The translations under genes were made by a program, and so were the position numbers. Positions 856 through 26,875 of a stretch of DNA of 60,918 nucleotides are shown one piece after another (within the stretch, counting starts at the first letter, position 1; the number at the start of each line of letters is the position of its first letter). Source of the stretch: a virus (Duplodnaviria > Caudoviricetes); the IMG/VR virus record IMGVR_UViG_3300032242_001271, positions 1-60,918 of that record, one strand, 5' to 3'. The notes beneath the pieces were generated by a model. It saw only the letters and a program-made list of their open reading frames with translations, did no database searches and was not told where the DNA came from.

Positions 856-856
856 C

Positions 857-8158: not shown

Positions 8159-8206
8159 TACTTCAACCCCTTTTTGTAGGTTATTGATTAGGTGCTTCTG
8201 TCAATA

Positions 8207-8597: not shown

Positions 8598-8603
8598 ATT
8601 ATA

Positions 8604-8978: not shown

Positions 8979-8981
8979 TAC

Positions 8982-9574: not shown

Positions 9575-9576
9575 AA

Positions 9577-9723: not shown

Positions 9724-9737
9724 AATAATACTCTTTC

Positions 9738-10468: not shown

Positions 10469-10683
10469 CCTTCACTTTCAACATCACAAATATAAAACTC
10501 TTCAGAACAACCACAAGGACATTGAAAACCAGTAACCCAAAAACCTTGCCACATAGGTTCAAAATAACTAGCACCGTGACAATAAGGTGTACCACAATAT
10601 CTAGCGGAAGGTATTTCTTCAAACTCTCCAAGAAAATCTGGAGGATAAAAATCAGGTTCGTTAATCTTTACTTGACTGCTCAT
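10453..10683 (-). CDS. Cys-rich hypothetical protein
   Basis: CGTPYC...CPCGC; start trimmed to MSSQVK. Confidence 0.6.
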   Translation of the reverse strand: MSSQVKINEPDFYPPDFLGEFEEIPSARYCGTPYCHGASYFEPMWQGFWVTGFQCPCGCSEEFYICDVESEGWWKA

Positions 10684-10948
10684 TCTTAATAATCTCCTCA
10701 TGTTTCTGAACATTACTATCAATTAAACGAAACTTAGAACCGGCAGGATTAGAAAAATATTCAGCAATAGGGCCACTATTTTCCCCACCACCATACTCGA
10801 ATACTCTCATATACCAGTTACTAATATTTACACCATACTGATTTTCAATAATCCTTGCTGCCTTTCTTGCTGCTTCCTCAACAGAAATAGCTTCAGATAT
10901 TTGAACAGGAAGCCTGACTTCTACAACATAATATTTATCGTTACTCAT
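10661..10948 (-). CDS. Hypothetical protein with DpnD/PcfM-like N-terminus, probably leaderless
   Basis: KYYVVEVRLPVQISEAISVEEAARKA; TAGACT 6 nt before the ATG. Confidence 0.7.
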   Translation of the reverse strand: MSNDKYYVVEVRLPVQISEAISVEEAARKAARIIENQYGVNISNWYMRVFEYGGGENSGPIAEYFSNPAGSKFRLIDSNVQKHEEIIKNEQSSKD

Positions 10949-10957
10949 AGATATAGT

Positions 10958-11101
10958 CTACAGCAAAGCGATGATAAATAAAATCGGACAAGCAATTAAA
11001 ATACCAATAAATAGAGCAAAGAATCCTCCAACTCCGACTATTACGAATAGAGCGAATATACAAAAAATTAACACACGAATAATTCCGATAAAATCCTTCA
11101 A
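10958..11101 (-). CDS. 47-aa two-TM membrane peptide (TTG start; not in ORF track)
   Basis: MKDFIGIIRVLIFCIFALFVIVGVGGFFALFIGILIACPILFIIALL. Confidence 0.45.
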   Translation of the reverse strand: MKDFIGIIRVLIFCIFALFVIVGVGGFFALFIGILIACPILFIIALL

Positions 11102-11140
11102 TATTCATATCTTTCTCTTTTCTACTTTATAGTAGGGACA

Positions 11141-12535: not shown

Positions 12536-12587
12536 TTATTTTCACTTTCTAATGATTAATGTGCGAGTCGGAGTTGCGATAAAGAGG

Positions 12588-12616
12588 AGCGTACTATGTT
12601 CAACTGGTTGCGTCAA
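12588..12616 (-). promoter_or_regulatory. SigA/sigma70-type early promoter
   Basis: TTGACG-17 nt-TACGCT; flanks homologous to the 8.2-kb promoter. Confidence 0.7.
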
Positions 12617-12751
12617 ATGCACAATCTATATTGTTTTAATTCTCGATAAAATAAATCGTGCTATGTTTCGCCCCCAAAACTTGCCTGCCAATGTTAAGCT
12701 TTATATGCCCGACCGCAACATTTAGCTTAATGTTTGACTAAAATTTAACAT

Positions 12752-12786
12752 AAAAAAATGTGGGCCTTTTTGGGGCCCACATTTTT
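12752..12786. terminator. Bidirectional intrinsic terminator downstream of rpf
   Basis: aaaaatgtgggcc...ggcccacattttt inverted repeat with A/T tails on both sides. Confidence 0.8.
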
Positions 12787-12881
12787 CGTAAAAATGTATT
12801 CAATTATACTTTTATAAAACCCTAAAGATGCGACACTTTAGGAACACTTTGCCCCTTGGAGGCAAAATTTTAGAAACACTT

Positions 12882-13409
12882 TCAACGTAAACCAAGTTTC
12901 AACGAACACCCCGGCCATTGCCCCCAACCACCAGAAGCAAGAGTTTTTTCAGCAATAACTATCTGCTGTTCTCTTGAAGCCATATAAGGAAATGGAGCGA
13001 AATCTCCACCACCCTGAGCAATCCAAGTGGAAGTAGCAAACATTATTCCACCTGAAAATGTTCCATTAACTAAGCCATAACCCCAATCACCACCGCTTTC
13101 ACATTGAGCTAAACTATCCCATACAGAATCTCCAGTCGCATAATTAACAGCGACAGTAGTTTGTATAGGGGCAGGATCGACAACAACTCTCGGAACAGTT
13201 GTCGTTGTCGTGTTAAGCCAACTCAAATCAATTGTAGTCGTTGTAGCTTCCACTACAGGATCTACAGGAGCAGTCACAGCAACTATATCTTCAGATATAG
13301 AAAATTCCTTAGGACTTTTATCTTGCTCAAGAGCAAATGCAGCCGTAAGGAATCCAAAAAATAATACAACAAAAATACTACCAAATAAAGCAATCTTTCC
13401 TTTATTCAC
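12882..13409 (-). CDS. rpf: Resuscitation-promoting factor (Rpf) family transglycosylase, secreted or membrane-anchored
   Basis: N-terminal signal/TM, Thr-rich linker, WDSLAQCESGGDW...GGIMFATSTW...ASREQQI.IAEK.LASGGWGQWPGC with the catalytic Glu. Confidence 0.9.
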   Translation of the reverse strand: MNKGKIALFGSIFVVLFFGFLTAAFALEQDKSPKEFSISEDIVAVTAPVDPVVEATTTTIDLSWLNTTTTTVPRVVVDPAPIQTTVAVNYATGDSVWDSLAQCESGGDWGYGLVNGTFSGGIMFATSTWIAQGGGDFAPFPYMASREQQIVIAEKTLASGGWGQWPGCSLKLGLR

Positions 13410-13421
13410 AATACCTCTATT

Positions 13422-13646
13422 CTACGGTCCTTGCTCTACTAAGGAAATGGCTGCAAAAGGAATATAAGTTAGATCCATTTTGCTGACCCTCTGATCATCG
13501 CCCATCTCAGTAGACATAAACACGCCATCTTCATTGACGACTCGGATATACCCGGTGCATAACCTGTTTATGTGAAGGAAACTTATTTTTACTAGAACTT
13601 TCTCTTCAGAAAGATCTGCGAAATATTCAATCTGATTTTTCCACAT
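13422..13646 (-). CDS. Putative Sm/Hfq-like fold protein
   Basis: Helix, then VLVKISF...TGYIRVVNEDGVFM...YIPFAAISLV resembles Sm1/Sm2 motifs. Confidence 0.5.
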   Translation of the reverse strand: MWKNQIEYFADLSEEKVLVKISFLHINRLCTGYIRVVNEDGVFMSTEMGDDQRVSKMDLTYIPFAAISLVEQGP

Positions 13647-13816
13647 ATGAATACCTCGGATATCTAGTATATCAAATTATCAATTTTAAATCTATTTTTA
13701 AAATAGATTATATTTTTTTATTTACAATATTTCGAAGATCAAGACAAAAATCTTGAACTTTCAAACTATCAACCAATTTTTGGTTAACAATCTCTAACAT
13801 AAAACTATCAATTGTT

Positions 13817-13856
13817 TCGAAAAGCTCCCGGCAAAAGTCTGCCGGGAGCTTTTCGA
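13817..13856. terminator. Intrinsic terminator (17-bp perfect stem)
   Basis: tcgaaaagctcccggca/tgccgggagcttttcga, 6-nt loop. Confidence 0.85.
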
Positions 13857-13874
13857 TATCTTTTTCCAAAGTGA

Positions 13875-14213
13875 TCAAGCCGTAGCCTTTGTCGTGGTAT
13901 TGCGACGAACAGTGCTCTTCTTTGCATCAAGAGTGGGATCTTCAATTTCATTCATACCAACGAAATAGAGATCACCAAGAACTTCATTATCTTCATGCTT
14001 ACGATAAACAATCTTAACCTTAAGGCCCATAGCGGAAGCAGTCTGACGAATACGCTGTTGAAGTGCATTGTACTTATTACCAGCCTCAACATCACGAACA
14101 ACCTGAGTCTCAAGAGTATTCAAAGCTTCTTGAATTTGCTTACGCTCTGCTGACGGACGGCCACCACCACGGCGAACCGCAGGAAGTTCTTCAGTCTTTT
14201 CAATGTTAAGCAT
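13875..14213 (-). CDS. Small basic putative DNA-binding protein
   Basis: Start at MLNIEK with AAGGAG RBS; LPAVRRGGGRPS motif; own terminator. Confidence 0.7.
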   Translation of the reverse strand: MLNIEKTEELPAVRRGGGRPSAERKQIQEALNTLETQVVRDVEAGNKYNALQQRIRQTASAMGLKVKIVYRKHEDNEVLGDLYFVGMNEIEDPTLDAKKSTVRRNTTTKATA

Positions 14214-14345
14214 TATATGCTCCTTATTGTAGATAATTAGTCTGTGATCAGACAGCCTGACCACTGAGAGATAGTGTAGCAGAGTCTGAGCGGAAACCTA
14301 CATCATCCTAAGATTTTTTTCTGTGGACGACAATAATTACCAACA

Positions 14346-14615
14346 CTATGCCGAAGCTTTTTCAGCCTTGCTTTTCCCAACAATATTGATACGGATTGGA
14401 CGACCCTTCTTGAAGAACTGTCCACCCCAAACTCCATAAGTGTCTCGATTAGCTAAAGCATCATCAAGACATTTTTGTTTGACACTGCAACTATTGCATA
14501 ATGCAAGTACCTGCTTCTTTTCCTTGAGTGAAAGTTCTTCAAATTCCTCAAAGAACATAGACGTGGGCATATCATTAATCCTGCACATGGCAAGCTTCAA
14601 GTCTTCGTTTTTCAT
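14346..14615 (-). CDS. whiB: WhiB family Fe-S transcription factor
   Basis: Four Cys (C...CNSCSVKQKC) and YGVWGG signature. Confidence 0.9.
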   Translation of the reverse strand: MKNEDLKLAMCRINDMPTSMFFEEFEELSLKEKKQVLALCNSCSVKQKCLDDALANRDTYGVWGGQFFKKGRPIRINIVGKSKAEKASA

Positions 14616-14623
14616 TTATTCCT

Positions 14624-16408
14624 TTAAATAATCTCAAGCCAATCAGAAATTTCTTCTGGAATTGACTTTGGTTTTCCATTTTCTTTAAAGTTTCTAGAAA
14701 TCATGTCTACAGCAAAAGTATCTTCCTCAATCTCTGCCATAGCATAATTTACTTCATCTAAGATCTCGATATCAAATTCCAACTCAGAACCGAGATTTGT
14801 GATACACATAAAAGTAGAGCCAGCAACAGCATCAGCAAGATCCTTAGATCCTGAACTTGGATGGTCTACCTTTGTATTATTAATTAACTTCAACTTAAGA
14901 AGTTCATCTTCAACAACAATATCATTCCAATAACCACGGAATCTTCCATCATAAATAGTAGTGGAAAGAGTATCGTAGTCTTTCTTTGCAACTGTATGAA
15001 GATCAGCATTAACACCAATAGCTCTCAGTGACTGGATCATATCAGCAGAGTTCCACTGATCGAAAGTTACAGAGACAACAGTAAAACGCTTAGTTAATTC
15101 TGTAATCGTTGCTCTAATATCAGCGAAAGGAATTTCAGAGTTATCTTCAGCCTTCCAGCTTTGTAGATAATCCATCTCAATAATCGGTAGATTCTCTATC
15201 CCACCCATAGTCTTAATCTTCTTAAGACCCGGAGAATGCACCATGCAAAGAGCAGCACGATCTCGCTTCAAACCTAAATCGATATGAATATATCGAGGAT
15301 GAGGATCTTTTCCAAGGAACCATTCCTTATAATGTCCATCATCATCAAGAGGATTCTCTTTAAACCTAAACGCCGCCCTAACTGATTCTGGATCACGGAA
15401 ATAAGCATCAACCATCTCCGGTGGCTCGCAAGCAAAACGTGCGCGCGCCATAATAGGATCTCTTCTAAACTCATTCTCAAATTCTTCACGATGACGAGTA
15501 GGATTAACTTCCCATGTAGCAGCCTTCAAACACCACGATGTAGCCTCCCTGTAGCCCCCACGGTTGCCTACTTTCTCATCAAGCATGACACCGCCATGTT
15601 CTAAAAGATCGTCAATAACTGACTTATATCTTTGTTGAATAAAGTCGCCTTTGAATCTAGGAAAAGAAAGAAGAACCACTTTTCCAACACTGGGAAATCG
15701 AGAAGTAATAGAAGCTCTAGCCATCTCATAAATCTCAGAAGCTGAACCCTTATTTCTAAGCTGCCCCTTCAATTCACCATCAGTCTTGAAAGCTGAAATC
15801 TCATCTAGAACAACAATAAGAACTTCATAACCTTCCCAGCCTTCTGCTTCAGAGTGACCGGAGAACATTCGAACAGGACGACTAAACCAAAAAATTTCTT
15901 GCACTCTAGGTTCAAAACCAACTTCACTAGCCCAAGGGGAAGAAAGAAGAAGGTTCTTCAAAGGATCAAAGAAAACCTGCTGAGCCTGCTTAGCATTAAC
16001 AGCAAGGTTAACAAGATCAACATAAACACCGGCAGCCTTGCCAAAGTAATCTAAAGGATCTCTCAAGCAATGAAGTAAATATGCGATATAAGCTAAAGAA
16101 ACGCGTGAAACATGATCCTTGCCAGAACCTTTGCCAAGCTGGCAAATTACCTCATTGACAGTATAATTCTGATAATACTCAAGTCCCTTTTCCTCACCAT
16201 AAAGTTCCATAAGAGTTTCTGGTTTGAAGATCTGAGTAATCCTTCTACCAATCTCAAGTTGGATTTCACTCAAAGGAGGAAGACCAAGATAATGTTTATC
16301 AGTAACAAACTTCTGCAAAGGAACAGGTTCTTCGATAAGATCCTCATTCTGCAAAAGTTTATCAAAATCATCGAAATCTAAATTAGTCCCGAAAAAATCA
16401 TCACCCAT
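14624..16408 (-). CDS. terL: Terminase large subunit
   Basis: Walker A QLGKGSGKD, Walker B VVLDEIS, nuclease HIDLG...FDQWNS...VDHPSSGSKDLADA. Confidence 0.9.
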   Translation of the reverse strand: MGDDFFGTNLDFDDFDKLLQNEDLIEEPVPLQKFVTDKHYLGLPPLSEIQLEIGRRITQIFKPETLMELYGEEKGLEYYQNYTVNEVICQLGKGSGKDHVSRVSLAYIAYLLHCLRDPLDYFGKAAGVYVDLVNLAVNAKQAQQVFFDPLKNLLLSSPWASEVGFEPRVQEIFWFSRPVRMFSGHSEAEGWEGYEVLIVVLDEISAFKTDGELKGQLRNKGSASEIYEMARASITSRFPSVGKVVLLSFPRFKGDFIQQRYKSVIDDLLEHGGVMLDEKVGNRGGYREATSWCLKAATWEVNPTRHREEFENEFRRDPIMARARFACEPPEMVDAYFRDPESVRAAFRFKENPLDDDGHYKEWFLGKDPHPRYIHIDLGLKRDRAALCMVHSPGLKKIKTMGGIENLPIIEMDYLQSWKAEDNSEIPFADIRATITELTKRFTVVSVTFDQWNSADMIQSLRAIGVNADLHTVAKKDYDTLSTTIYDGRFRGYWNDIVVEDELLKLKLINNTKVDHPSSGSKDLADAVAGSTFMCITNLGSELEFDIEILDEVNYAMAEIEEDTFAVDMISRNFKENGKPKSIPEEISDWLEII

Positions 16409-16763
16409 TAATTGAAACCTTTCTTATCCACCGGACAGTAATTCCAACTAAACCAATGGGATCATATCTTCTTAAAAAATTAGGAACAGCTAAATGCTTT
16501 ACCAATACAAGGATAGTAAGCCAGATAGGCCAACGAACAATAGGATGATCAACACCGCGCCAACATCCGTCAGAGAGAGTTTCATACTTATTCTCCATAT
16601 TTTTATTCTTGTTATAATCATTGAGAGCCATAGCAACAACGTCATAACCTAAAACAAAAAGTCCCAAGATAGCCCATCCTGAAGTGGACTTCTTTGGGAA
16701 AACACTAGTCAATAATCTCTGCATCTTCAACCTCAGAATCCTCAACAATATCATCTGGAACAC
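16401..16763 (-). CDS. Membrane protein (start uncertain)
   Basis: Two hydrophobic segments; W..L...VLGYD...ETLS...HL pattern. Confidence 0.6.
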   Translation of the reverse strand: MFQMILLRILRLKMQRLLTSVFPKKSTSGWAILGLFVLGYDVVAMALNDYNKNKNMENKYETLSDGCWRGVDHPIVRWPIWLTILVLVKHLAVPNFLRRYDPIGLVGITVRWIRKVSING

Positions 16764-17307
16764 CTGTCTCAGAATCCATCATCGAGAAAGCCTCACGAAG
16801 CATTGGCCCAGCTTTCTGCTTGCACTCTTCACAATCAGCAATAACATCTCTAATAACTTTGGAAATCATTTGATTGACAGTTTCTGCCTTTTGCATTCTT
16901 GCAATATATTCGCCGTCAGTCTTAGTTCCACCCATAAGCTGATGAAGCTGGGCCTTCTTAGTTGCAATCTCAAGACAAAGCTTCAAAGCCTGATTTCTAC
17001 CAGAAACCATACCTTCTCTAGTTGCAATCTCAACAGTCTCCCAAGCTTCTTTCGAAATCTCATCGAACTCAGCCAAAGCTTTAACTGTATTGTACTGAAC
17101 CTTTTCAAGAAAGTATGGATCTCCTTCAGCAGTATCCTCAAGGAAACTCTTATATTGGTTAATATAATCTCGAACAGTCTGAGGAGAAATGCTCTCTAAC
17201 TCAGCAATATCAGCATTAGAGTAGCCTTTGAGATTAAGCAGACCAACCTGCTCAACCTTCTTAGCCTTATCAAATATGCTATTCGATTTCTCTATCTCAT
17301 TAGCCAT
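16705..17307 (-). CDS. HTH protein, candidate terminase small subunit
   Basis: GYSNADIAELESISPQTVRDY HTH followed by helical region; just upstream of terL. Confidence 0.6.
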   Translation of the reverse strand: MANEIEKSNSIFDKAKKVEQVGLLNLKGYSNADIAELESISPQTVRDYINQYKSFLEDTAEGDPYFLEKVQYNTVKALAEFDEISKEAWETVEIATREGMVSGRNQALKLCLEIATKKAQLHQLMGGTKTDGEYIARMQKAETVNQMISKVIRDVIADCEECKQKAGPMLREAFSMMDSETGVPDDIVEDSEVEDAEIID

Positions 17308-17329
17308 ATAACAATTATACCATATCTAC

Positions 17330-17644
17330 TTATTCATCTTCAGAGTCATCAAACTCAAAGTCATCGACAACTTCAATATTAAGGGACTTCTTTCCTCTAG
17401 TAGACGTTGCCCTCTTATTTACAAGAGCAGCAGCCTCTGTATCATCATCAGGAAGATTGGTGCTCATCTTCTCAATATTATGACGAAACTCAGTAGAAAG
17501 AATGACGAGCAACTTCTCGACAAGTTCCTTATCATAAGCACCGATCATATACTTTGACAGAATTGACTTTACATTATCATAAGATGAGAACTTGAGTAGT
17601 TCCTTCTCAACGATCTTAAATGCGTTCTTTGTTGTATTAGACAT
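17330..17644 (-). CDS. Hypothetical protein
   Basis: 104 aa, TAATG coupling. Confidence 0.7.
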   Translation of the reverse strand: MSNTTKNAFKIVEKELLKFSSYDNVKSILSKYMIGAYDKELVEKLLVILSTEFRHNIEKMSTNLPDDDTEAAALVNKRATSTRGKKSLNIEVVDDFEFDDSEDE

Positions 17645-18054
17645 TAATTAGACTCCAAGTCTTCTCTAGCTAAAAAGTGGAAAAACCAGTATAACTCATA
17701 TATTGACATCTCATTCAAATCACAATACTTGTGCTCCAAAGGGCTCCACATCTTGAAGAATATAGCTTCTTCTTCATTCATTCCCTGAGAATAGATCGGA
17801 ATGAACAAACCCGTTCGTATTGCATAAAGCATATCTTCAGTTGGGAAGTGCATACCACCAAGATTATAGCCATTATCATAGATATCATCTACAACATCAT
17901 TCCATAAATCTGCAAATAAATATGAGATTATAAAAATAACTCTCTGGACTTCCTGTTCCGGGGGAGACGAAATATCGTCATCCCCCGGCGAGAAATATTC
18001 TTCTTCTGGATCAGAAAAATTCTCAATCACACCGTTGAACCGCAACTTCCACAA
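17644..18054 (-). CDS. Hypothetical acidic protein
   Basis: 136-aa ORF, start uncertain. Confidence 0.6.
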   Translation of the reverse strand: MWKLRFNGVIENFSDPEEEYFSPGDDDISSPPEQEVQRVIFIISYLFADLWNDVVDDIYDNGYNLGGMHFPTEDMLYAIRTGLFIPIYSQGMNEEEAIFFKMWSPLEHKYCDLNEMSIYELYWFFHFLAREDLESN

Positions 18055-19028
18055 CGCTCATGATGAGTAAGAGTAAGATTACCACCAATCTCAAGAAGAC
18101 GTTGGCGAATCTCTGGAGTCAACTCTGTATCGTGAGAGCCAGTCCAAGTAACAAGATTAACAACATCATTCATATTCTTGATCTTCTCGCCAGTCACAGT
18201 TGCAAGAAAGTCTGGATGAACTGCCCAAAAAGAGAGGCGAGTCAGAACCTTGTTGGGAAGTTTATATTCCAGAACAATCTGGCGAATAATCTTCATATAG
18301 TCATCGACTTTCTCATCAATAAGATGAGTAAAACTCTCAAAGAGTTCAGGAATCTTCTCAATAGCAATAGCAGAAAAATCACGAATCTGTCGCATAACAT
18401 CATCATGCGATGATCCAGTAACACGGAACTTACGATTCTCAAGTTCATTGACCATTCCATTGGCACACAACTCACGCCAAATATATGAATCAATAGAAGG
18501 ATGAGTATCCCAAGCATCAGAATAAATAATCTTCACTCCACCAAATAGATTTGATCCATCAATCGACTCTTGATAGTTACTAGGAAGAATAGAAAATGAC
18601 ACCTTAGAGTCAGTCATCTTGCCATACTTAATTGTATAGTCATCACCGACTGCTTCACGAACAGAACTAAGCATCTCGGCATTCGAGACATATGGAGTAT
18701 TAACCTTCATAAAAGAACGAAGACGATCACCCTCAACAAGAGCAGCAAGATGATTGCTACGATTTCCCTTAACAAAATAGTTCATCGTATATGCAAGAAG
18801 ATCATCCGGGATACGACGAGCGTAAGGAACAGGAATATTCATCTCTCCAGCAAGATGACGGAATGAACTATCTGTAAGAGTATAAGAACTTCCTGCGATA
18901 GTTACAGAAGGATTCTTGCCAGCATTAAAACTAAGATCACCTAGTTGGAAGTCAAGATGCTGAGTAACTTCGGAACGGCGAAGGAGCTTCTCTTCGAAAG
19001 AAGTATCATCCTTAATAAGTGTAGTCAC
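18027..19028 (-). CDS. DUF932-like phage protein
   Basis: YIWRELCANGMV motif; GTG start with AAGGA RBS. Confidence 0.6.
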   Translation of the reverse strand: MTTLIKDDTSFEEKLLRRSEVTQHLDFQLGDLSFNAGKNPSVTIAGSSYTLTDSSFRHLAGEMNIPVPYARRIPDDLLAYTMNYFVKGNRSNHLAALVEGDRLRSFMKVNTPYVSNAEMLSSVREAVGDDYTIKYGKMTDSKVSFSILPSNYQESIDGSNLFGGVKIIYSDAWDTHPSIDSYIWRELCANGMVNELENRKFRVTGSSHDDVMRQIRDFSAIAIEKIPELFESFTHLIDEKVDDYMKIIRQIVLEYKLPNKVLTRLSFWAVHPDFLATVTGEKIKNMNDVVNLVTWTGSHDTELTPEIRQRLLEIGGNLTLTHHERCGSCGSTV

Positions 19029-19103
19029 TTTTATTTCCTTTCATATCCCCCATTTTGGGGCTGTCACACAGGATACCATGCTGACAGGGAATTGCAACCT
19101 ATT

Positions 19104-19400
19104 TTATATTTTTTTCTTTCTAGACTTCGCCATAGCTCTCATGCGCTCTTCTCTTGCCCTATCTGGACGCTTTCCCATAGAGCTAGCCTTCTTCTTTCCT
19201 TGAAGATTAGCACCAATTTTGCGTCCCTTTCCACGATACTTGAGAAGATCATACTTAACTAGCCAATTGTAAATAGATTGATGGCTAATCTTAATATTAT
19301 AGTTTTTTTCAAGAAGCTGAACCATATCTTTCAAGTTCATTCTTTTTTGAACATAATGAAAGTATAGCCAGTCTCTTTGTTTATAAGGTTCAAGAGACAT
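19104..19400 (-). CDS. HTH DNA-binding protein
   Basis: YKQRDWLYFHYVQKRM...ISHQSIYNWLVKY. Confidence 0.65.
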   Translation of the reverse strand: MSLEPYKQRDWLYFHYVQKRMNLKDMVQLLEKNYNIKISHQSIYNWLVKYDLLKYRGKGRKIGANLQGKKKASSMGKRPDRAREERMRAMAKSRKKKI

Positions 19401-19989
19401 CTGAATCTTCCTTGTTAATTTTATCTAAACCATAAAGAGCAATTCCAATAGAATCACAAATATCGTTGTCAGTTATATGTTTAATATTTGGAATTTTATT
19501 ATGAATAATTCTTATAGTTCTTTGTTTTCTCTCAGAAGCAGCCATCTTCTTTGATTCTTTTTCACCAAACTGTTTAGTCCAAGATTCTTTCTCAGCTTTA
19601 CTGACATTCTTATACCCAATATGACTCTTCCAATTGGCAATAGTAACCTCTGAAACATTATTACATTGCTTCAGACATTCCCCAATAAGATGTCCGGAAA
19701 CTTGAGATAAAATACGACTAGTAGCTGGATTCTGGATATAAATTGGTTGTTCAACAAAAGTATAGTCTATGTGATTATCTTTGAAAACTTCGGGAATTAT
19801 AGTTGATACTATTTTAAATTTAGCATTCATAGAAAAATTGCTAAGATTTACCTTAGCAACTTTCAATAGTTTAGTGCTATCTGCATCACTTCTGATGATA
19901 GCAAAAGCTATGACGGTAGATGAAGCATCAATTCCCATGACAGTGGCAGGCTTAGATCGCATAACTTTTAAAGTTCTAGCCAATCCCAT
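19390..19989 (-). CDS. ruvC: RuvC-like Holliday junction resolvase
   Basis: MGIDASS, FVEQP, DNDICDSIGIA acidic tetrad. Confidence 0.75.
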   Translation of the reverse strand: MGLARTLKVMRSKPATVMGIDASSTVIAFAIIRSDADSTKLLKVAKVNLSNFSMNAKFKIVSTIIPEVFKDNHIDYTFVEQPIYIQNPATSRILSQVSGHLIGECLKQCNNVSEVTIANWKSHIGYKNVSKAEKESWTKQFGEKESKKMAASERKQRTIRIIHNKIPNIKHITDNDICDSIGIALYGLDKINKEDSDVS

Positions 19990-20303
19990 TAGAAAGACCA
20001 GTCATCTCTGAGCTCATCTTCATCCCAGCCCCAAGAGGCAAGTCTTTGAATAAGACGTTCAGTCTTGCAAATCTCACAAATGTTTTCGCTATTATAAGTA
20101 GATAGAATAGTTCCACAATCTTTAGTCTTACATACTCTTTTTTTATTGTTTTTTCTAGCTTTATTTTCATAATAGCGATCTAAGACATTTTTGTTAGTTA
20201 TAATCTTTCGACAATCAATACTGCAATAGACGGCATTGTGGACCATAGGGTCAAAGATCTTCTCGCAATTTGGATTAGCACATATCTTTGGCTCTAAATG
20301 CAT
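19989..20303 (-). CDS. Zinc-finger protein, probably leaderless
   Basis: Eight Cys in CxxxxC/CxxxC/CxxC groups. Confidence 0.75.
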   Translation of the reverse strand: MHLEPKICANPNCEKIFDPMVHNAVYCSIDCRKIITNKNVLDRYYENKARKNNKKRVCKTKDCGTILSTYNSENICEICKTERLIQRLASWGWDEDELRDDWSF

Positions 20304-20327
20304 AAAATAATTATATCATATATATAA

Positions 20328-21110
20328 TTATTTTTTAAAATTAATAGCTACGCCTTCTTCTGAGTCAGCCCAGCAGTGAGCATATGCGTCGCATCTGCTA
20401 CAATTCTGAGAGGTCTGCTTATATGGTCTGACAGCAAGATCACCATTCTTAAATACTTGATAGATCTTCTTATATCTATTAAAAGTAGTCTCAATAAACT
20501 TCTCATCCCGCTTAACTAAAAGCGGAAGCAAAGCAGAATTATTCTTAGAATAGTAGAGAAGGAAACCTTCCTCATAATCCATACCATGAAGATAGAACTG
20601 AATCTGTCTAAAATGTTCATCCTTAGGTTTATGATAAGCACTTCTAAAGGCAAAACCGGCCTCATTAATTGACTTGCACTCAACAATCTTAGGGCCATTC
20701 CAGTCAATAATAAAGTCGATATAACCCTTAATCGGAACAGGATCAGTAATCTCCATAGGGACCTGAGAATCAACCAAGATACCAAGATCATAGAACATTT
20801 GCTGAACAGCATCCTCAATACGATTTCCCATATCAAAAATACGTCTAGTCTGCCCTAAAATCTCAGTAGTCTGCTGATAACCCCTCATACGATAAATAGC
20901 AAACCTAGCGCAAGTATTCGTATTAGAAGGAGCGAAGCTTTCGCTCTGCTTCCAGAAGGTTCCATTAGAAGCCTCAAGTTTAGCATCAATAGCCTTAACC
21001 AAAGAACTCTCAAGATCAAGAACATCAACAGGAGTAGCAACTCCCTCAGTCTTCTTAACAGGCTTCTTCTCAGGCTGCTGAACCTTTAACTTAGAAACAA
21101 TAGACTTCAT
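20328..21110 (-). CDS. Cas4-like PD-(D/E)XK exonuclease
   Basis: GYIDFII...IVECKS...QIQFY, C-terminal CSRCDAYAHC plus N-terminal Cys. Confidence 0.85.
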   Translation of the reverse strand: MKSIVSKLKVQQPEKKPVKKTEGVATPVDVLDLESSLVKAIDAKLEASNGTFWKQSESFAPSNTNTCARFAIYRMRGYQQTTEILGQTRRIFDMGNRIEDAVQQMFYDLGILVDSQVPMEITDPVPIKGYIDFIIDWNGPKIVECKSINEAGFAFRSAYHKPKDEHFRQIQFYLHGMDYEEGFLLYYSKNNSALLPLLVKRDEKFIETTFNRYKKIYQVFKNGDLAVRPYKQTSQNCSRCDAYAHCWADSEEGVAINFKK

Positions 21111-21472
21111 CGAACACCAGACATTCCAGCCTCAACACGGCCAAGCAACTTGAGGGTATTGATATTTTCTTCAAGTGCAGTAAACATCAACATAAGAAGA
21201 TCCTTACGACGACGCTGCAAAATAGACTTATCACTAGTCTTATAATACTGAGCCCTAGCACCAAGTTTAGTTCTAAGCGCAGCAAGCTTCGCTGCAGCAA
21301 CAAGAGCCTCAGAGCCCATCATCGCATTAGGACGATCCAAAATACGCTGAACAATCTCCATACAAGCAGCAAACTCAATATATTCATCGCCACTCAAAGC
21401 ACCGGCAACCTCATCAAGATCAACTTCAACATTACCTTCAGACATCTCTCTAGCTTGCATCATCATCTCCAA
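21107..21472 (-). CDS. Hypothetical helical protein
   Basis: 121 aa in the recombination cluster. Confidence 0.7.
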   Translation of the reverse strand: MEMMMQAREMSEGNVEVDLDEVAGALSGDEYIEFAACMEIVQRILDRPNAMMGSEALVAAAKLAALRTKLGARAQYYKTSDKSILQRRRKDLLMLMFTALEENINTLKLLGRVEAGMSGVR

Positions 21473-21734
21473 AATTCTCTAGAAAATTACTAAACATCTC
21501 TTCCTCAGTCATTGCACCAACAAACTCTCTAATTGTATCGTCAAATGTCCAATCTCGAAACTCATAAGCGTGCTTCATACACAAAGGCATAGGAGGCATA
21601 ACAAATGGCATATTTAAGCCACGAACAGTCTCGACACCACACTCAGGTTCCTGCTCACTAGACTGATACACACAAGTTGTACTCTCTATCTCAACAAATC
21701 TGCTTTCACTTCTGTTTAAGCTCAACAAAATCAT
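21450..21734 (-). CDS. Hypothetical protein (start uncertain)
   Basis: C...C...CxxH motif. Confidence 0.5.
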   Translation of the reverse strand: MILLSLNRSESRFVEIESTTCVYQSSEQEPECGVETVRGLNMPFVMPPMPLCMKHAYEFRDWTFDDTIREFVGAMTEEEMFSNFLENFGDDDAS

Positions 21735-21999
21735 CCCAATCTAAAATAGCAACCATACGGCCATCACCATAAATTACTTTAATCAAAGGTTTATAATGAC
21801 CATCATTCCAAGCATCCTTGCTATGCTTAGCCCAAGCAGTAGATTTCAACGTAAAAGTAAGTTCATTATGTTTATAATCAACAAGCCATTCACCATCTTG
21901 GATTGAATCGCCCTTCTTGAAGCCTCTACCGCTATTAGGAACAACAACTGCACCATCTTTTCGAGCAGATCTCTTCTCCCTATGATTCCAATTAGTCAT
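21706..21999 (-). CDS. Small PD-(D/E)XK endonuclease / resolvase-like protein
   Basis: REKRSARKDGA...NSGRG.KKGD...LVDYK; start trimmed to MTNWN. Confidence 0.65.
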   Translation of the reverse strand: MTNWNHREKRSARKDGAVVVPNSGRGFKKGDSIQDGEWLVDYKHNELTFTLKSTAWAKHSKDAWNDGHYKPLIKVIYGDGRMVAILDWDDFVELKQK

Positions 22000-22948
22000 T
22001 AGAGACATCTTCGCTATCAAAGACAAGGGTAATATTCTCAAGATCAGAAAGAATCTGTTCCATATCCTTATCTGAAAGAGCATTCACAAGCTTCTCAGCT
22101 CCATGATAACGCTCACCATCCCACTCAAACCATGCACCCTTCTTCACAATAAGGCCATGACGAACAGCGATATGGAAAGCCTCACGCTTTAAATCAATAT
22201 GAGCAGACTCAGGAGAAAACCAATAATCACCCTTCGTGCCCTGAATAGACTTCTGCTTAGACTTATCAATACGCCAAGTCACCTTACGACTCGTAATACG
22301 CTCATCAGTATCACGATCAACATCAGCAGAAGCATCACCGGCATTAAGGCGAATAATATTCGTAGCCCAATGAAAAGCAGCATTACCATACTTACCCTGC
22401 GTAACAAAATACTGACCCTTGGCAGCAATAGTCTGCTGAGCAATGAAGACAACACAATGATTTACACCAGAAATAAGTTCATCAGCAACCTTCTGAATCA
22501 AAACACCCTGAGAACGAGCATAAATGCCAATGCCACCCATACCATCATCATTCTTATAAAACTGCTCCATAACAATGGTATTGATCGAATCAAAAATAAA
22601 GAAATACTTAGAATCCTTCTCACGAAACATCGGCATGATCACATTCAAAATATCTTCAAGAATCGTAGAACGAATCACAATACGGTCCTCGATATCAATA
22701 CCACAATGCTCCATCCACTCATCAGTAGAAGAACCCTCAGCATCAATAATAACCGGCGTATAACCCATCTTCTGAGCCTCAGCAGCAGCATGAAAACACA
22801 TCGTAGACTTACCAGCCTGAGGATTACCCCAAACAATATGATAACGGCCAGACCACAAGCCACCACCAAGAATATAATTCAAACCAAAAGAAGGAGTTGG
22901 AATGATCTCCGGCTTCGGAATCTTTTCGCCACCTTTAACTACAAGCAT
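21992..22948 (-). CDS. recA: RecA/UvsX-like recombinase
   Basis: Walker A GNPQAGKS, IIDAEG, IFDSI, C-terminal KKGAWF; start MLVVKG with GGAAAGG RBS. Confidence 0.9.
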   Translation of the reverse strand: MLVVKGGEKIPKPEIIPTPSFGLNYILGGGLWSGRYHIVWGNPQAGKSTMCFHAAAEAQKMGYTPVIIDAEGSSTDEWMEHCGIDIEDRIVIRSTILEDILNVIMPMFREKDSKYFFIFDSINTIVMEQFYKNDDGMGGIGIYARSQGVLIQKVADELISGVNHCVVFIAQQTIAAKGQYFVTQGKYGNAAFHWATNIIRLNAGDASADVDRDTDERITSRKVTWRIDKSKQKSIQGTKGDYWFSPESAHIDLKREAFHIAVRHGLIVKKGAWFEWDGERYHGAEKLVNALSDKDMEQILSDLENITLVFDSEDVSND

Positions 22949-25900
22949 AAACTTTCCTTTCCTCATCAATATCTATCAAGTTCATCTTACACCATTTATC
23001 AGCAGAAATTACATTCGCAAGAGAATACTGCCCATTTCTGCCAGTAGAAACCTTCAACATCTTCCACTCAAAAACCTTATTCAGCTCAGCACGATGCGAC
23101 ATAACCGATGAACCAAAAATGGTCGTCTTAAGCCACCCATGATCAGGAACATAAAAATAAGACGAACACATATCCTTATCAGTACGAGTCTTAAAATGAA
23201 CCGTATTAACCAAATACGCCAACAAAGGACTCTTACCATTCGGAATAATCTCGCGCCTAATGCCCTTACCATACAGAAAATCAAACTCATCCATCGGCTC
23301 ACCAGAAATCTGATGCTGCAAAAACTTTGCAAACTTAGAATTAGACTTACCAGTCTCAATCTCATTAAAATCCTCAATATGATGAATCGTCTGATCACCA
23401 ACAATCGCAATCACATAATCACGCTTATTGATCACCGCATCAGAATCAGCAAACGAAGAAACCACACCAGTAGCATCCTCAATCTCAGCCCGGAAATACC
23501 GAGGAGTACGCTTCGTAGACTTCACAACACCACGAACAATATAAAGATTAATATCCTCCTTATTATCCTGAGCATCCGAACACGGCATAATAATACCATC
23601 AAACGGAGACTTATCATTCATCGTCACAGGATAATTCAACAACGGACCATAATAACGACGAGACTCATAAGGAGAATCAAACCCAATACTATCCAACGCC
23701 CCAACCTTCTGCAAAGCCTCCAAATTATTAACCTTCACCTTCGACTTCTGCACCGAATTAATGAAATGATCATAATCATGGAACGGACGCTTCAAAACAA
23801 TCTCATTAACAGTATTCGCACCACACCCAGCAATATTAGAAAGACCAAAACGCAACGCATCACCATCCAAAGAAAAACTATACTCAGACTTATTTACATC
23901 GGGACCGAGAATTTCGATACCAATACGTTGAGCCTCAAAGAGATAAGTCGTGATTTTCTCACCTTCTGTCTCATTCGACAAAGTAGCCCAAATGAACTCA
24001 GTAGGATAATTAACCTTCAACCACATAGTCTGATACGAAACAAGAGAATAAGCAGTCGCATGAGACTTATTGAACATATACAGAGACGCCTTTTCAATAT
24101 CAGACCAAAGGGCCTTTGCCTTATACTCTGAAATATATTGAGTTGCACCATCAACAAAGTCCTGTTGATACTTATCGAACTCAGCAGCATCCTTCTTCTT
24201 AGAAATAATCTTACGAAGACGATCAGCCTTAGCCCAAGAAAAACCAGCGAGCTCTACAGCAATCTTCATAACCTGCTCTTCAAAGATAAACGTACCATAA
24301 GTCTCCCCGAGAATATTCTCGAGAATCCTATGATCATAAGTTGTACGCTCAGTGCCATCACGACGAGCAAGATATTTCTTACCCTGAGTTACATATGATC
24401 CCGGACGTACCAAAGCGTTCGAAACGGCGAGATCATTGAAACTAGAAACACCCATCTCAGTAATGAGAGCAGCATACCCAGCCCCTTCCGCTTGGAAGAT
24501 GCCGACAACATTACCTGCTGTAAACTCGGCAAAGACTCTTGGATCTGGGTTGTCAATATCAAGGCTGTCTTTTGAAACATCAAGTCCCGTTCGTTCCTCA
24601 ATGGCATTGAGGCAGTCTTTGATAACTGTGATTGCACGAACCCCAAGAGCATCAAATTTAATAAGTCCAAATTCACCAGTCTCATCCTTATCGTAAGCTA
24701 TAACATTGATCTTCCGCTTAGTCCCAGCCTCTTCACGAACCTCAATAGGAACGATAGTGTTGAGCGGAACATTGGATACGACAACGCCAGCAGCGTGCGC
24801 TGAAGCGTTCTTGTATCGCCCTACAAGCCTCTCAGCGACCTTAATGATGTCAGGGTTCTTGTTTCTAAACTTAGCCAATTTATCTTTAGTTTTATACTCC
24901 TCGAAAGTCTCAAACAAAGGAGAAATAGCATTAGCCTCAGTATAAGGAACAGCAAAAGCGCTAGCAATAGCTTTGATAGACCCCTTAGGCTGAAAAGTGC
25001 CATAGGCAGAGATACCAGCAACATTCTCGCTACCCCAACGATTTCTCAGATATTCCTTCGCTTCATCACGCCTACGATCTTCGAAATCAAGATCGATATC
25101 CGGGAAGTCATTTCTCTCAGGATTGATAAACCGAAAAAAGAGAAGTCCATGCTTGACCGGATCGATATTCGTAATACCAAGAACATAAGACAATAAAGAT
25201 CCACCAGCGCTACCACGGGCAGGCCCACGGGCAATGCCGTCACTATCAGCCCAACTGATAAGATCCCAAAGGACCAAAAAGTAGTCAGAGAAATTCTTAC
25301 CAGCAATAACTGTAAGTTCTTCTTCAAGACGCTCAACGTAAACTGGATCATCAGAAAGTCCTTTCTGCTCCATAAGGAAGAAAGAAACATCACGAAGATA
25401 TTCATTAGAAGTCATATTGATCTTAATGTCCTTCGTGTATGAAGGAAGGAACATATTGTTCATTTTAATTTCAGTATTACACTTATCAGCGATTTCCATC
25501 GTATTCTCTAGAATATCAAGTCTAGTGATACCTGCATCACTGAAATGTTGTAATGCTTCATTCGCATCCATCATGTAAAGAGGAAGATCCTTGAATGAAA
25601 GTCTACGATCAGGATAAAGCATATCCATCTTATCAATAAGGTTATGCACGTTGCAAGCCTTATCATAATGATCTTTTGCATGACGCTTCTGGGCAGCATT
25701 CATAGAAGAACTCTGTCCAACAGCAAGAAGAACTTCCTCTACACCCCAATCTGCCGCTGTGGGGAAATGACAGTCAAGTGTGCCGACAATCGGAATGTTA
25801 TATGAATCACCATAGTCAATTAACTTGGCATTCAACTCAGGTGGATTATGAGGCTGAACCTCAAGGTAGTAGTCATCTTTAAAGATACCACGAAACTTAT

Positions 25901-26375
25901 TAAGTAATAATTCAGAACGCTTCTCGTCACCCTCAAGAATAGCCTTAGACAAGGCACTGCCCATACAACCGGAAAGGCAGATGAGGCCCTCGCCAAACTG
26001 TTCAAGATTAGAGAAGTCAATGCGAGGTTTATAGTAGAACTGCTCTGTCCAAGCGACATTATTCAATCTGAAAAGATTTTCAAGTCCCTTATCATTTTTT
26101 GCAAGGAGGATGAGATGAAAGCGTTCAGCCTTATTAGTTTCATCGTCAGTGCTTACATCATCGACAAAGTAAGCTTCAACTCCAAAGATAGGCTTAACAT
26201 TCTGATCACGACAAGCTTTTTGAAATCTGATGAAGCCTCCCATAGTCCCATGATCAGTAATAGCAGAGGCTATCTGACCATTGGTACTAGCAATATGAGC
26301 CATCTCCTCAGGCGTAGTTAAGCCATCAAGAAGTGAGTATTCACTATGATTGTGAAGATGCACCATCTCGGCCAT
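22935..26375 (-). CDS. dnaE: DNA polymerase III alpha subunit (DnaE-like)
   Basis: PHP domain HLHNHSEYSLLDG, RGSAGGS, PDIDLDF, FNKSHA. Confidence 0.95.
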   Translation of the reverse strand: MAEMVHLHNHSEYSLLDGLTTPEEMAHIASTNGQIASAITDHGTMGGFIRFQKACRDQNVKPIFGVEAYFVDDVSTDDETNKAERFHLILLAKNDKGLENLFRLNNVAWTEQFYYKPRIDFSNLEQFGEGLICLSGCMGSALSKAILEGDEKRSELLLNKFRGIFKDDYYLEVQPHNPPELNAKLIDYGDSYNIPIVGTLDCHFPTAADWGVEEVLLAVGQSSSMNAAQKRHAKDHYDKACNVHNLIDKMDMLYPDRRLSFKDLPLYMMDANEALQHFSDAGITRLDILENTMEIADKCNTEIKMNNMFLPSYTKDIKINMTSNEYLRDVSFFLMEQKGLSDDPVYVERLEEELTVIAGKNFSDYFLVLWDLISWADSDGIARGPARGSAGGSLLSYVLGITNIDPVKHGLLFFRFINPERNDFPDIDLDFEDRRRDEAKEYLRNRWGSENVAGISAYGTFQPKGSIKAIASAFAVPYTEANAISPLFETFEEYKTKDKLAKFRNKNPDIIKVAERLVGRYKNASAHAAGVVVSNVPLNTIVPIEVREEAGTKRKINVIAYDKDETGEFGLIKFDALGVRAITVIKDCLNAIEERTGLDVSKDSLDIDNPDPRVFAEFTAGNVVGIFQAEGAGYAALITEMGVSSFNDLAVSNALVRPGSYVTQGKKYLARRDGTERTTYDHRILENILGETYGTFIFEEQVMKIAVELAGFSWAKADRLRKIISKKKDAAEFDKYQQDFVDGATQYISEYKAKALWSDIEKASLYMFNKSHATAYSLVSYQTMWLKVNYPTEFIWATLSNETEGEKITTYLFEAQRIGIEILGPDVNKSEYSFSLDGDALRFGLSNIAGCGANTVNEIVLKRPFHDYDHFINSVQKSKVKVNNLEALQKVGALDSIGFDSPYESRRYYGPLLNYPVTMNDKSPFDGIIMPCSDAQDNKEDINLYIVRGVVKSTKRTPRYFRAEIEDATGVVSSFADSDAVINKRDYVIAIVGDQTIHHIEDFNEIETGKSNSKFAKFLQHQISGEPMDEFDFLYGKGIRREIIPNGKSPLLAYLVNTVHFKTRTDKDMCSSYFYVPDHGWLKTTIFGSSVMSHRAELNKVFEWKMLKVSTGRNGQYSLANVISADKWCKMNLIDIDEERKVYACS

Positions 26376-26875
26376 TAAATATTACTCCATTTTTTGCGAT
26401 TAATAATGTCACTAATATGACCGGCTGATTTTCCATATTTATTAGCAATCTCTTGCATCGTTTTCCCTTGTTGATACATACCTCTTATGCTTTGCACTTC
26501 TTCCTTAGTTAATCTATCGCTATATGTTCTTGTATTTTCAAGTTTTATTAGCATCTCATCCATCTCTTTTAATTTAATACTAGATAGATATGGTCTTAGC
26601 TTATTACATACTAATCTAATCTTTTCAGCCCCGCCACAACCGTAGTACCACATATCTTTATGAGGAGGTCTACTATAGGGGCCATTTATATATCCAGATC
26701 CTACGGCATTCATAAACCTTTTCAAAACTTCTGGATGTGCTTGACTAATCCCAATATTTGGATAAAATTTACTGCTAGACCCATTTGTCTTTCCTGTCCT
26801 AAAACATCCTTCTCCATCAAAAAATCCAGCAGCCCATGCTAACTCTATTTCTTTTTGGTGTGTAAATTCAGGCAA
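26375..26875 (-). mobile_element. Free-standing LAGLIDADG homing endonuclease with C-terminal HTH
   Basis: LAWAAGFFDGEGCF motif; TMQEIANKYGKSAGHISDII HTH; A-rich codon usage unlike dnaE. Confidence 0.85.

Follow-up and report, generated by a model that had tools for sequence, protein, structure and literature searches.

The C-terminal third of the phage dnaE gene carried an island in which nearly every codon ended in G or T on the sense strand, and this anomaly was both real and extreme. The bias was confined to synonymous positions, occurred in several related lineages with an extent that varied among them, and was associated with no distinct protein clade. As the best explanation we propose, tentatively and with somewhat less than even confidence, that weak selection at synonymous sites, acting on the nucleic acid itself and not on decoding, maintains the island.

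The window, that is, the whole stretch of DNA analysed, was an entire phage genome of 60,918 bp, in which nearly all predicted genes (77 of 78) were on the minus strand and the mean third-position G/T was 0.68. The island, the zone surrounding it, and the genes involved were as follows:

23043–23894, minus strand: core island, dnaE codons 828–1111 (C-terminal third of dnaE), G or T at 275 of 284 third positions
20433–24387, minus strand: wider zone of raised G/T, about 0.81–0.82 outside the core, from dnaE codon ~631–663 and ending some 35 codons short of the Cas4-like stop codon
22935–26375, minus strand: dnaE, DNA polymerase III alpha type, with PHP, polymerase, finger, and HhH domains
21992–22969, minus strand: RecA/UvsX-like recombinase gene, G/T 0.87–0.89, with a 90-codon run lacking A-ending codons
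21706–22083, minus strand: Holliday-junction-resolvase-like gene, its 5′ part overlapping the 3′ end of recA, with a local dip to 0.63 over 21889–22078
21107–21734, minus strand: two small genes of 94 and 121 aa, third-position G/T 0.72 and 0.83
20328–21110, minus strand: Cas4-domain exonuclease-like gene, third-position G/T 0.77, declining toward the 3′ end

Only two A and seven C interrupted the G/T third positions of the core (0.97), and the third-position composition of the patch counted (22974–23894) was A 0.02, C 0.03, G 0.36, and T 0.59. A first-pass annotation made from the sequence had described about 188 consecutive dnaE codons without an A-ending codon and with few ending in C; codon-by-codon reading gave a run of exactly 188 from 23894 to 23331, with just four C-ending codons, and the depletion of A and C on the sense strand was in the direction described. 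This run was the longest of its kind in the genome, followed by the 90 codons in the recA-like gene, while the longest outside the zone was 53. Optimal segmentation over the 18,441 third positions of the genome isolated 23043–23892 at G/T 0.97 and gave 0.65 and 0.54 for the segments flanking the wider zone. When the island protein was recoded 2000 times with genome-wide codon usage, G/T was 0.683 ± 0.026 with a maximum of 0.768, and the binomial tail for the observed count at the genome mean was 5e-35. The skew was a genome-wide outlier.

Within the island, T and G were both used in every four-fold family and only the T or G member in two-fold families, while the choice of Leu codon moved from CTT to TTG. 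Compared with synonymous shuffles, no words were enriched except GATCA, at low counts. Spacers between predicted genes had a sense-strand G+T of just 0.46–0.65 genome-wide, and in the early region A made up 0.22–0.35 of the spacers versus 0.17 of third positions. The zone itself held no non-coding DNA, since an apparent 257-nt spacer (21735–21991) proved to be the resolvase-like gene. No tRNA genes were present in the phage genome, no Rfam families were matched in it, and no near-identical phage DNA was found in the phage collection searched.

The upstream edge lay at 23895/23894, exactly where it had been placed at first reading, and the codon immediately upstream (23897–23895) was GTA. The island began at the start of the HhH domain (Pfam match to residues 819–899) of a protein whose matches to PF02811, PF07733, PF17657, and PF14579 all exceeded the cut-offs and followed the domain order of DnaE. 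From the edge downstream, G/T stepped through 0.97, 0.88, 0.63, 0.81, and 0.59, the dip to 0.63 coinciding with the overlapping genes; the profile was stepwise with dips, not a smooth gradient. As reported earlier, the bias ran through recA and faded near 20.4 kb, the downstream change point of the zone being at 20430/20433.

Extension of the analysis to relatives, as the first-pass annotation had suggested, revealed the same island in 8 of 13 dnaE loci from metagenomic relatives, with an edge that varied in position. The upstream edge was at codon 828 in the window and its sister L005 only and at codon 918 in four other lineages; L002 was weakly raised from codon 638, and L024, a syntenic relative at equal protein distance, had no island. 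Edges at 630/631, 827/828, and 917/918 were each common to a subset of lineages and sharp within a few codons. Four-fold identity between the window and L005, L003, L002, and L001 was 54–66% in the island and 56–59% outside, against saturation values that we estimated at about 0.5 and 0.42, respectively. The window, L005, and L003 nevertheless each retained 0.92–0.96 G/T in the island. As the island was kept despite near-saturated four-fold sites, the bias is actively maintained and is not a relic. Homing endonuclease genes and an intein were observed in and around the region in the window, L005, and L026; the endonuclease genes of the window and L005 had only a C-terminal helix-turn-helix in common.

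Under the proposed selection on the nucleic acid, a fixation bias would act weakly against A and C at each free sense-strand site, and the physical result would be a C-poor, G/U-rich transcript and a complementary (plus) strand barely able to pair with itself. The target would be the single-stranded or transcribed form of the region, for example a recombination or replication intermediate beside the recombinase gene. We infer both that selection rather than mutation is the keeper of the island and that its target is of this single-stranded or transcribed kind. Maintenance through near-saturation supports this, as do the spacers being less biased than third positions, and the obedience of every codon family to one nucleotide-level rule points to the nucleic acid. 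Support also comes from poor folding of the plus strand, which as RNA reached −15.9 versus −25.3 kcal/mol per 150 nt in same-protein recodings (z +5.2), that is, folded far worse; as DNA, both strands folded somewhat worse than the recodings (z about +2). On the other side, we know of no function for an element of this kind, and the literature searched yielded no earlier case of selection keeping 97% G/T across 284 codons. That L024 manages without the island also counts against selection, and the deamination-like direction of the bias, the same but weaker in the rest of the genome (0.68), makes an intensified mutational process a natural reading.

Mutation and fixation could be compared in L004, L008, and L025, the only unsaturated trio, which represents one sublineage with a weaker island (0.81–0.83). 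Synonymous transitions, which swap G/T for A/C or the reverse, numbered 125 in the zone versus 177 expected from the background (0.71-fold, Poisson P 2e-5) and fell to 0.62-fold in the strong part of the zone, while G<->T and A<->C transversions at four-fold sites were at 1.08-fold; with only 24 such transversions in the zone, the ratio of the two ratios was 0.65 (95% CI 0.40–1.07). Polarised rates in the zone versus the background were 0.079 versus 0.096 for T>C, 0.047 versus 0.077 for G>A, 0.25 versus 0.18 for C>T, and 0.125 versus 0.12 for A>G. Changes away from G/T were slowed and those toward it slightly accelerated, as expected of fixation bias, and fewer instead of more transitions in the zone argue against simple extra deamination, within the scope of one trio with a weaker island. 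The 0.71-fold value is, however, fitted equally well by a lowered mutation rate of the template strand, which counts against selection. Codon positions 1 and 2 showed no shift, a comparison of low power in which 10–25% of residues had changed since the split from the island-free relative, and ten conservative residue pairs (including I/V, K/R, N/D, and T/A) showed no change of ratio across 8 lineages, again at low power. As selection on composition should tilt neutral amino-acid exchanges, this result also weighs, at that low power, against selection.

The first-pass annotation had read the region as a hidden origin, with a fixed replication start, nick, or R-loop near 23.9 kb and a TATAGT hexamer at the edge. 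The promoter-like features considered were:

23877–23882, minus strand: TATAGT, 12–17 nt inside the edge, codons Tyr832–Ser833, in the window and L005 only
20310–20318, minus strand: extended −10 promoter-like site TGATATAAT, within an AT-rich palindrome (20295–20343) just beyond the downstream end of the zone

The hexamer was indeed present at its position, but it had no TG in the extended −10 register and no −35 match, and amounted only to a Tyr-Ser codon pair shared by two genomes. A sigma-70-type consensus scan gave no good promoter-like site at the 23.9-kb edge. The TGATATAAT site occurred in the window, L005, L003, and L026 but not in L002, L008, L025, L024, or L007, and therefore does not track the island. 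Nine extended −10 sites were located on the minus strand, eight of them preceding genes, and no rise in G/T was seen behind the nine. The fall in G/T at the junction between the Cas4-like gene and the next gene also occurred in relatives with no promoter there. A reset of the bias by promoters was accordingly rejected as its cause, G/T being not raised behind promoters and the junction fall being seen in promoter-less relatives. No iterons were found in the window, where repeats were short two-copy chance matches only; the GC fraction at the edge was ordinary (0.405–0.411 at 22–24 kb), and the cumulative GC skew fell near-monotonically until ~55 kb and did not change course near 23.9 kb.

The main competitor to selection is a local mutational asymmetry, in which the sense strand of this segment would stay single-stranded for longer as part of an R-loop, D-loop, or intermediate of strand displacement or recombination. 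Deamination (C>T, A>G) would push free sites to T and G while the protein was preserved by purifying selection. We regard this as a serious rival, somewhat less probable than selection on the nucleic acid. The direction of the bias is that of deamination on an exposed strand, the background of the whole genome has the same sign (0.68), nearly all predicted genes sharing a strand, and the sharp upstream edge is followed by lower values downstream (0.97, 0.88, 0.81, 0.59). The use of both T and G in each codon family is what a nucleotide-level process would yield, and some animal mitochondrial genomes have a comparable G+T excess on a single coding strand. However, exposure predicts synonymous transitions in the trio at no less than ~1.1-fold, and they were at 0.71-fold, C>T being up just 1.4-fold and A>G 1.0-fold. 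Also unfavourable are the stepwise, dipping profile in place of a smooth gradient, the lack of drift at codon positions 1 and 2 (at low power), and an edge that shifts between codon 828 in two lineages and codon 918 in four, with L002 weakly raised from 638 and L024 without an island. A narrower form of this model, with a unidirectional origin or nick fixed at 23.9 kb, is improbable: the moving edge, the lack of iterons and of a promoter, the skew without a turn, and the 0.71-fold transitions left it without support.

Open reading frames on the opposite strand also bear on the choice of explanation; their codon-aligned placement follows from our own arithmetic on the start coordinates:

23139–24131, plus strand: antisense ORF of 330 aa, codon-aligned frame, no Pfam match
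22199–23047, plus strand: antisense ORF of 282 aa, codon-aligned frame, no Pfam match

Over 22974–23894, TTA and CTA were absent and the single TCA sat between the two ORFs; the antisense frame is open because these sense codons are missing, and the earlier attribution of both ORFs to the wobble bias, as by-products of the missing TTA, CTA, and TCA, held. The reverse proposal, that both ORFs are genuine genes and that their requirements dictate the sense wobble positions, is close to refuted and scarcely credible, even though the ORFs do exist in the window and similar ones lie over recA in L001 and L008 (351 aa). An open antisense frame requires the loss of those three sense codons only, not of all A- and C-ending codons, the limits of the longer ORF (23139–24131) differ from those of the island (23043–23894), the products would have only residues of codons starting with A or C, and Pfam matched neither. 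Tuning of decoding, fast or slow, by G- and T-ending codons is very unlikely. It would suit a bias limited to synonymous positions, and the capsid gene, too, rarely encodes Lys or Gln with an A-ending codon (AAG 14:1, CAG 12:1). The capsid gene, however, favours C-ending codons (AAC 12:9, TAC 7:3, TTC 7:3, ATC 14:9), whereas the island favours T-ending ones (AAT 19:1, TAT 14:0, TTT 14:3, ATT 20:1, GAT 23:0), and for Leu the capsid uses CTT/CTG and the island TTG. Translational optimisation is thus not supported by codon usage, and it does not sit well with the interchange of T and G between relatives in each four-fold family, with an edge inside a gene, or with a phage that carries no tRNA genes. 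Homologous recombination from an unsampled relative with a G/T-rich genome or replication module, its breakpoints forming the edges, is likewise improbable. Sharp edges common to subsets of lineages (630/631, 827/828, 917/918) would fit it, and the homing endonuclease genes and intein nearby (window, L005, L026) make double-strand breaks and gene conversion likely there. This alternative had been raised at first reading together with separate trees as the test; trees of DnaE residues 1–827 and 828–end agreed in their supported clades, and the anomaly survived that refutation test. Block-wise protein distances were equal with or without the island, with no outlier in identity (for block 918–1111, 0.69–0.77 from L024 to island bearers and 0.73–0.81 among bearers across lineages), and four-fold sites had diverged as much in the island as beyond it. 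In all 9 diverged full-length relatives compared, G/T was ≤0.71 over the N-terminal portion of dnaE, scans with the recA and Cas4-like genes returned only the same contigs and three fragments, and the donor's own bias would still require a cause.

A more specific form of selection on the nucleic acid, which we consider rather improbable in its details, is that the island is a cis-acting element written in free coding positions. Its unwound strands would be unfoldable, and the G/T-rich strand would be a favoured substrate of the adjacent RecA/UvsX-type recombinase. A preference of RecA for G/T is reported in PMC3763553. The region might then serve recombination-dependent replication as a built-in zone for loading or initiation, which some lineages gained and enlarged step by step (edge at 918, then 828) and which others can do without.

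Among known systems, vertebrate mitochondrial DNA accumulates C>T and A>G changes on the strand that stays unpaired. Its strand-displacement gradient resembles the island in having the same direction on one strand, a mainly synonymous effect of comparable magnitude, and edges expected at start sites, but the island occupies 0.85–4 kb of a 61-kb phage genome, is stepwise, has an edge that moves among relatives, and showed fewer transitions in the trio. Strand-biased composition usually arises across a whole genome, as a slight by-product of replication or transcription. In the leading-strand G+T excess of bacterial chromosomes and phages, G exceeds C and T exceeds A on one strand, most strongly at third positions, and the window shows this weakly (0.68). 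Known skews of this kind extend over genomes or replichores and are much weaker, unlike an island that is local, reaches 0.97, has its edge inside a gene, and shows no cumulative switch. Transcription-associated asymmetry in mammals has step-like edges at gene ends and an effect of a few per cent. It shares with the island a coding-strand G+T excess over a bounded unit with a sharp start, but the island is near-absolute, with no promoter at its edge and no rise in G/T behind recognisable promoters. Phage origins can lie inside genes, as do lambda ori in gene O and the R-loop origins of T4. Like the role considered for the island, these are cis-acting replication elements within coding sequence beside replication and recombination genes; what defines them, however, is either iterons or a promoter together with an AT-rich unwinding element, no such feature was found at the island, and we know of no wobble-position bias at intragenic origins of either type. 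The closest cultured kind, Streptomyces phage Samisti12 (Stanwilliamsviridae), had the same gene order (helicase, primase, DnaE, RecA-like, resolvase, Cas4 exonuclease, RuvC-like) without the island, third-position G/T being 0.49–0.60 in 15 of 15 genes examined. Compared with Streptomyces phages, DnaE was ~40% and the capsid protein ~51% identical.

The bias of the island is local and near-absolute, its edges are sharp to a few codons, and it is inherited while differing among close relatives. Should selection be the cause, essential phage genes would carry, at several hundred of their synonymous positions, a second message on the behaviour of the nucleic acid, which would bear on the reading, recoding, and engineering of phage genomes. 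If it is mutational, the island marks a fixed single-stranded zone and offers a sequence-only means of finding start zones of replication or recombination in uncultured phages. Either way, it provides a clean natural test case of mutation bias versus selection at synonymous sites. Among public runs, examined as assembled contigs, one run reproduced the stretch analysed here and two carried fragments of relatives.

In dnaE of the window, synonymous sites formed an island of G- and T-ending codons (core at 23043-23894, minus strand, dnaE codons 828-1111, within a more weakly biased zone at 20433-24387) that is real, extreme and heritable. The genome, assembled whole as one contig of 60,918 bp, was that of a tailed phage with 77 of the 78 selected ORFs on the minus strand. 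The block containing the island encoded DnaB-like helicase, primase, SSB, dCMP deaminase, DnaE, recombinase, resolvase-like, Cas4 and RuvC-like proteins in the same order as in Streptomyces phage Samisti12, which, unlike the window, lacks the island; the capsid protein and DnaE were about 51% and 40% identical, respectively, to those of Streptomyces phages.

22935..26375, minus strand, dnaE
21992..22969, minus strand, RecA/UvsX-like recombinase gene
between the recombinase and exonuclease genes, resolvase-like gene and two small genes
20328..21110, minus strand, Cas4-domain exonuclease gene
same replication/recombination block, RuvC-like gene

Reading of dnaE codon by codon from 23894 down to 23331 gave 188 codons with no A and 4 C at the third position, directly preceded by a GTA codon. 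This A-less run was the longest in the genome, followed by one of 90 codons in the recombinase gene, the maximum elsewhere being 53. Third positions in the patch at 22974-23894 were A 0.02, C 0.03, G 0.36 and T 0.59 versus A 0.14, C 0.17, G 0.20 and T 0.49 in the rest of dnaE, with hardly any difference at codon positions 1 and 2. Segmentation placed the core above all other segments, with G or T at 275 of 284 codons, whereas 2000 recodings of the same protein with genome-wide codon usage gave 0.683 ± 0.026 (maximum 0.768). Thus, the wobble anomaly, its sharp edge at 23895/23894 and its fade toward about 20.4 kb (0.82 to 0.54 at 20433/20430), all described in the first-pass annotation, were confirmed.

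Optimal segmentation over all 18,441 third codon positions of the genome (G/T, fraction of third positions with G or T on the sense strand)
62-12942, G/T 0.76
12945-19741, G/T 0.69
19744-20430, G/T 0.54
20433-23040, G/T 0.82
23043-23892, G/T 0.97
23895-24387, G/T 0.81
24390-52212, G/T 0.65
two more segments beyond 52212, G/T 0.74 and 0.55

The small-gene block at 62-12942 had raised G/T of another flavour than the island, with C very low (0.07) and G ordinary (0.18 versus 0.27-0.37 in the island). A second, milder rise (0.74) was located at 52215-54477 inside a 1086-aa protease-containing fusion gene, where 100-codon windows reached 0.85 near 52.6-52.9 kb. Fifty dnaE codons at 24486-24633 (codons 581-630) had the reverse tendency (0.38), and at codons 625-634 or so (GGC ATC TTC CAA GCG GAA ...) third positions were kept in most lineages, in contrast to near-saturated synonymous sites elsewhere; they may represent a nucleotide element under conservation or the target of an endonuclease.

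Related metagenomic loci (those with L numbers) were gathered by scans with DnaE, recombinase and exonuclease and by DnaE alignment. Among the 13 dnaE loci including the C-terminal part, the island was present in 8 and absent in 5.

Island and upstream edge in related loci (G/T over the patch columns; edges from change-point analysis in alignment coordinates)
L005 and L003, island present, 0.96 and 0.92
L001, L004, L006 and L008, island present, 0.85-0.86
L025, island present, 0.85
L002, island present, 0.80
L024, island absent, 0.66
L026, island absent, 0.53
L007, island absent, 0.61
L009 and L027, island absent, distant loci (32% identity)
window and L005, edge at codon 827/828, 0.97-0.98 afterwards
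L003, L001 and L008, edge at codon 917/918, 0.89-0.99 afterwards
L025, edge at codon 912/913, 0.88 afterwards
L002, rise from codon 638, 0.79 afterwards
L024, L026 and L007, no upstream edge

L001 and L004 were identical across the aligned 11.6 kb. Island bearers likewise had raised G/T through the recombinase gene as far as the exonuclease gene, followed by a drop. The most telling island-free relative was L024, close and syntenic yet unbiased: its N-terminal DnaE identity was 0.88-0.91, at the same protein distance as the island bearers, and G/T was 0.61-0.67 both in the C-terminal part of its dnaE and in its recombinase, small and exonuclease genes. At four-fold sites sharing the first two bases, the window was 54-66% identical to L005, L003, L002 and L001 in the island and 56-59% outside; since unrelated sequences are estimated from base frequencies to share about 0.5 and 0.42, respectively, both regions are near saturation and about equally diverged. 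In three separate lineages T and G were freely swapped at these island sites while A and C were kept out; hence this is a bias under active maintenance, not the fading trace of one event.

The candidate explanations of the island rank, in descending order, as selection on the nucleic acid itself, single-strand exposure, recombinant import, translational tuning and an antisense gene, the leftover confidence going to causes outside this list. Selection on the nucleic acid itself is favoured tentatively, at somewhat short of even chances. Exposure of the sense strand, leading to C>T and A>G changes as first proposed, is possible but doubtful. In L004, L008 and L025, a single sublineage with a weaker island (0.81-0.83), few transversions and 5-8% DNA divergence, at which changes are countable, synonymous transitions (swapping G/T with A/C) in the zone numbered 125 versus 177 expected from background (0.71x, Poisson P 2e-5; 0.62x in the strong part), four-fold G<->T and A<->C transversions, blind to the bias, stood at 1.08x (24 events), and the transition/transversion ratio of ratios was 0.65 (95% CI 0.40-1.07). 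Per-site rates polarised on the two short branches of this trio were, in zone versus background, 0.079 versus 0.096 for T>C, 0.047 versus 0.077 for G>A, 0.25 versus 0.18 for C>T and 0.125 versus 0.12 for A>G. Deamination of an exposed sense strand predicts a transition rate of about 1.1x or more, as estimated from base frequencies, contrary in direction to that observed; the trio rates fit either fixation bias against A/C or a lowered mutation rate of the template strand. Across 8 lineages with zone G/T of 0.585 to 0.88, position 1 shifted just from 0.52 to 0.55, mostly at Leu TTR, and neither position 2 nor ten conservative residue pairs shifted, a weak test of mutation versus fixation because little protein change has occurred since the split from the island-free relative. 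Spacers between predicted genes had sense-strand G+T of 0.46-0.65; in the early region A was 0.22-0.35 in spacers versus 0.17 at third positions, with C low in both, and therefore genome-wide A avoidance, a part of the bias, is codon-specific. The form of the exposure model with a fixed origin, nick or R-loop near 23.9 kb is improbable: the sharp edge stood, but no iterons, turn in cumulative GC skew or Rfam matches were found, and GC was 0.405-0.411 across 22-24 kb. The TATAGT reported at the edge was indeed located there, as a Tyr-Ser codon pair common to the window and L005 only (Ala-Ser, Pro-Ser or Ala-Ala in other lineages), but was not promoter-like: it lacked a -35 match and an extended -10 TG, and was not among the sites listed by the promoter scan. 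The extended -10 motif TGNTATAMT, probably a host-type promoter class of this phage, occurred at nine minus-strand sites (8598, 13666, 17314, 20310, 29231, 34697, 46994, 49812 and 50201), eight directly before genes and none at the island edge. The site at 20310-20318 lay just past the zone within an AT-rich palindrome; L002, L008 and L025 lacked such a site at the same junction and G/T still fell, and L026 had the post-zone site without the island.

Import of the island by recombination, the alternative in the first-pass annotation, is unlikely. Maximum likelihood trees of DnaE residues 1-827 and 828 to the end agreed on supported groups (window with L005; L001 with L008 and L025; the rest star-like), and block-wise identity matrices gave no block with island bearers as a separate protein group; over residues 918-1111, L024 was 0.69-0.77 identical to bearers, themselves mutually 0.73-0.81 identical across lineages and at least 0.84 only inside two close groups. 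N-terminal dnaE G/T never exceeded 0.71 in nine of nine diverged full-length relatives compared, leaving no visible candidate for a G/T-rich donor genome, and simple gene transfer is not supported. Tuning to translation is very unlikely: the capsid gene, the reference as presumably most expressed, favours C-ending Asn, Tyr, Phe and Ile codons and CTT/CTG for Leu, whereas the island has almost solely T-ending Asn, Tyr, Phe and Ile codons and TTG for Leu, T and G are both used in each four-fold family, and no tRNA genes were found in the phage genome. The rule of the bias concerns nucleotides, not tRNAs. An antisense gene shaping sense wobble positions is scarcely credible; by our own arithmetic, start coordinates place the two antisense ORFs in the codon-aligned frame, which stays open for lack of TTA, CTA and TCA among the sense codons, so that codon bias explains them as supposed, and neither had a Pfam match.

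Watson-Crick pairs always join G or T with C or A, and a strand pushed to G/T is therefore poor at self-pairing. Folded as RNA, the plus strand of the island averaged -15.9 kcal/mol per 150 nt, compared with -25.3 when this protein was recoded (z +5.2), while the sense RNA was slightly more structured than recodings (z -2.9) because of G-U pairs; with DNA parameters without G-T pairs, both strands folded somewhat worse (z about +2). Among the entries that full-text literature searches listed, none described a comparable local G/T island in a phage.

Several possibly mobile or exchanged elements were also observed. Immediately upstream of dnaE, 26375-26875 (minus strand) encoded a homing-endonuclease-like protein (PHROG HNH, Pfam LAGLIDADG at threshold, C-terminal HTH; G/T 0.54), replaced in relatives by a 67-71-aa gene; it looks like a mobile insertion because a contig of run X3 bypasses it, joining 26358 to 26859. 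In L005, an HNH-type endonuclease gene (9401-9913, weak Pfam hits) with G/T of 0.63 amid flanks at 0.9 formed an insertion separating dnaE from the recombinase gene, and in L026 (9429-11396) and L016 the recombinase gene itself contained an intein that has LAGLIDADG and Hint domains. GC fell to 0.27-0.32 at 36001-41000 (a 1719-aa tail gene and its neighbour) versus 0.35-0.42 around, which may mark an exchanged host-range segment. The contigs of L003, L005, L024 and L026 were 96-97 kb versus 60.9 kb for the window, a difference that may reflect larger genomes or assembly of concatemers.
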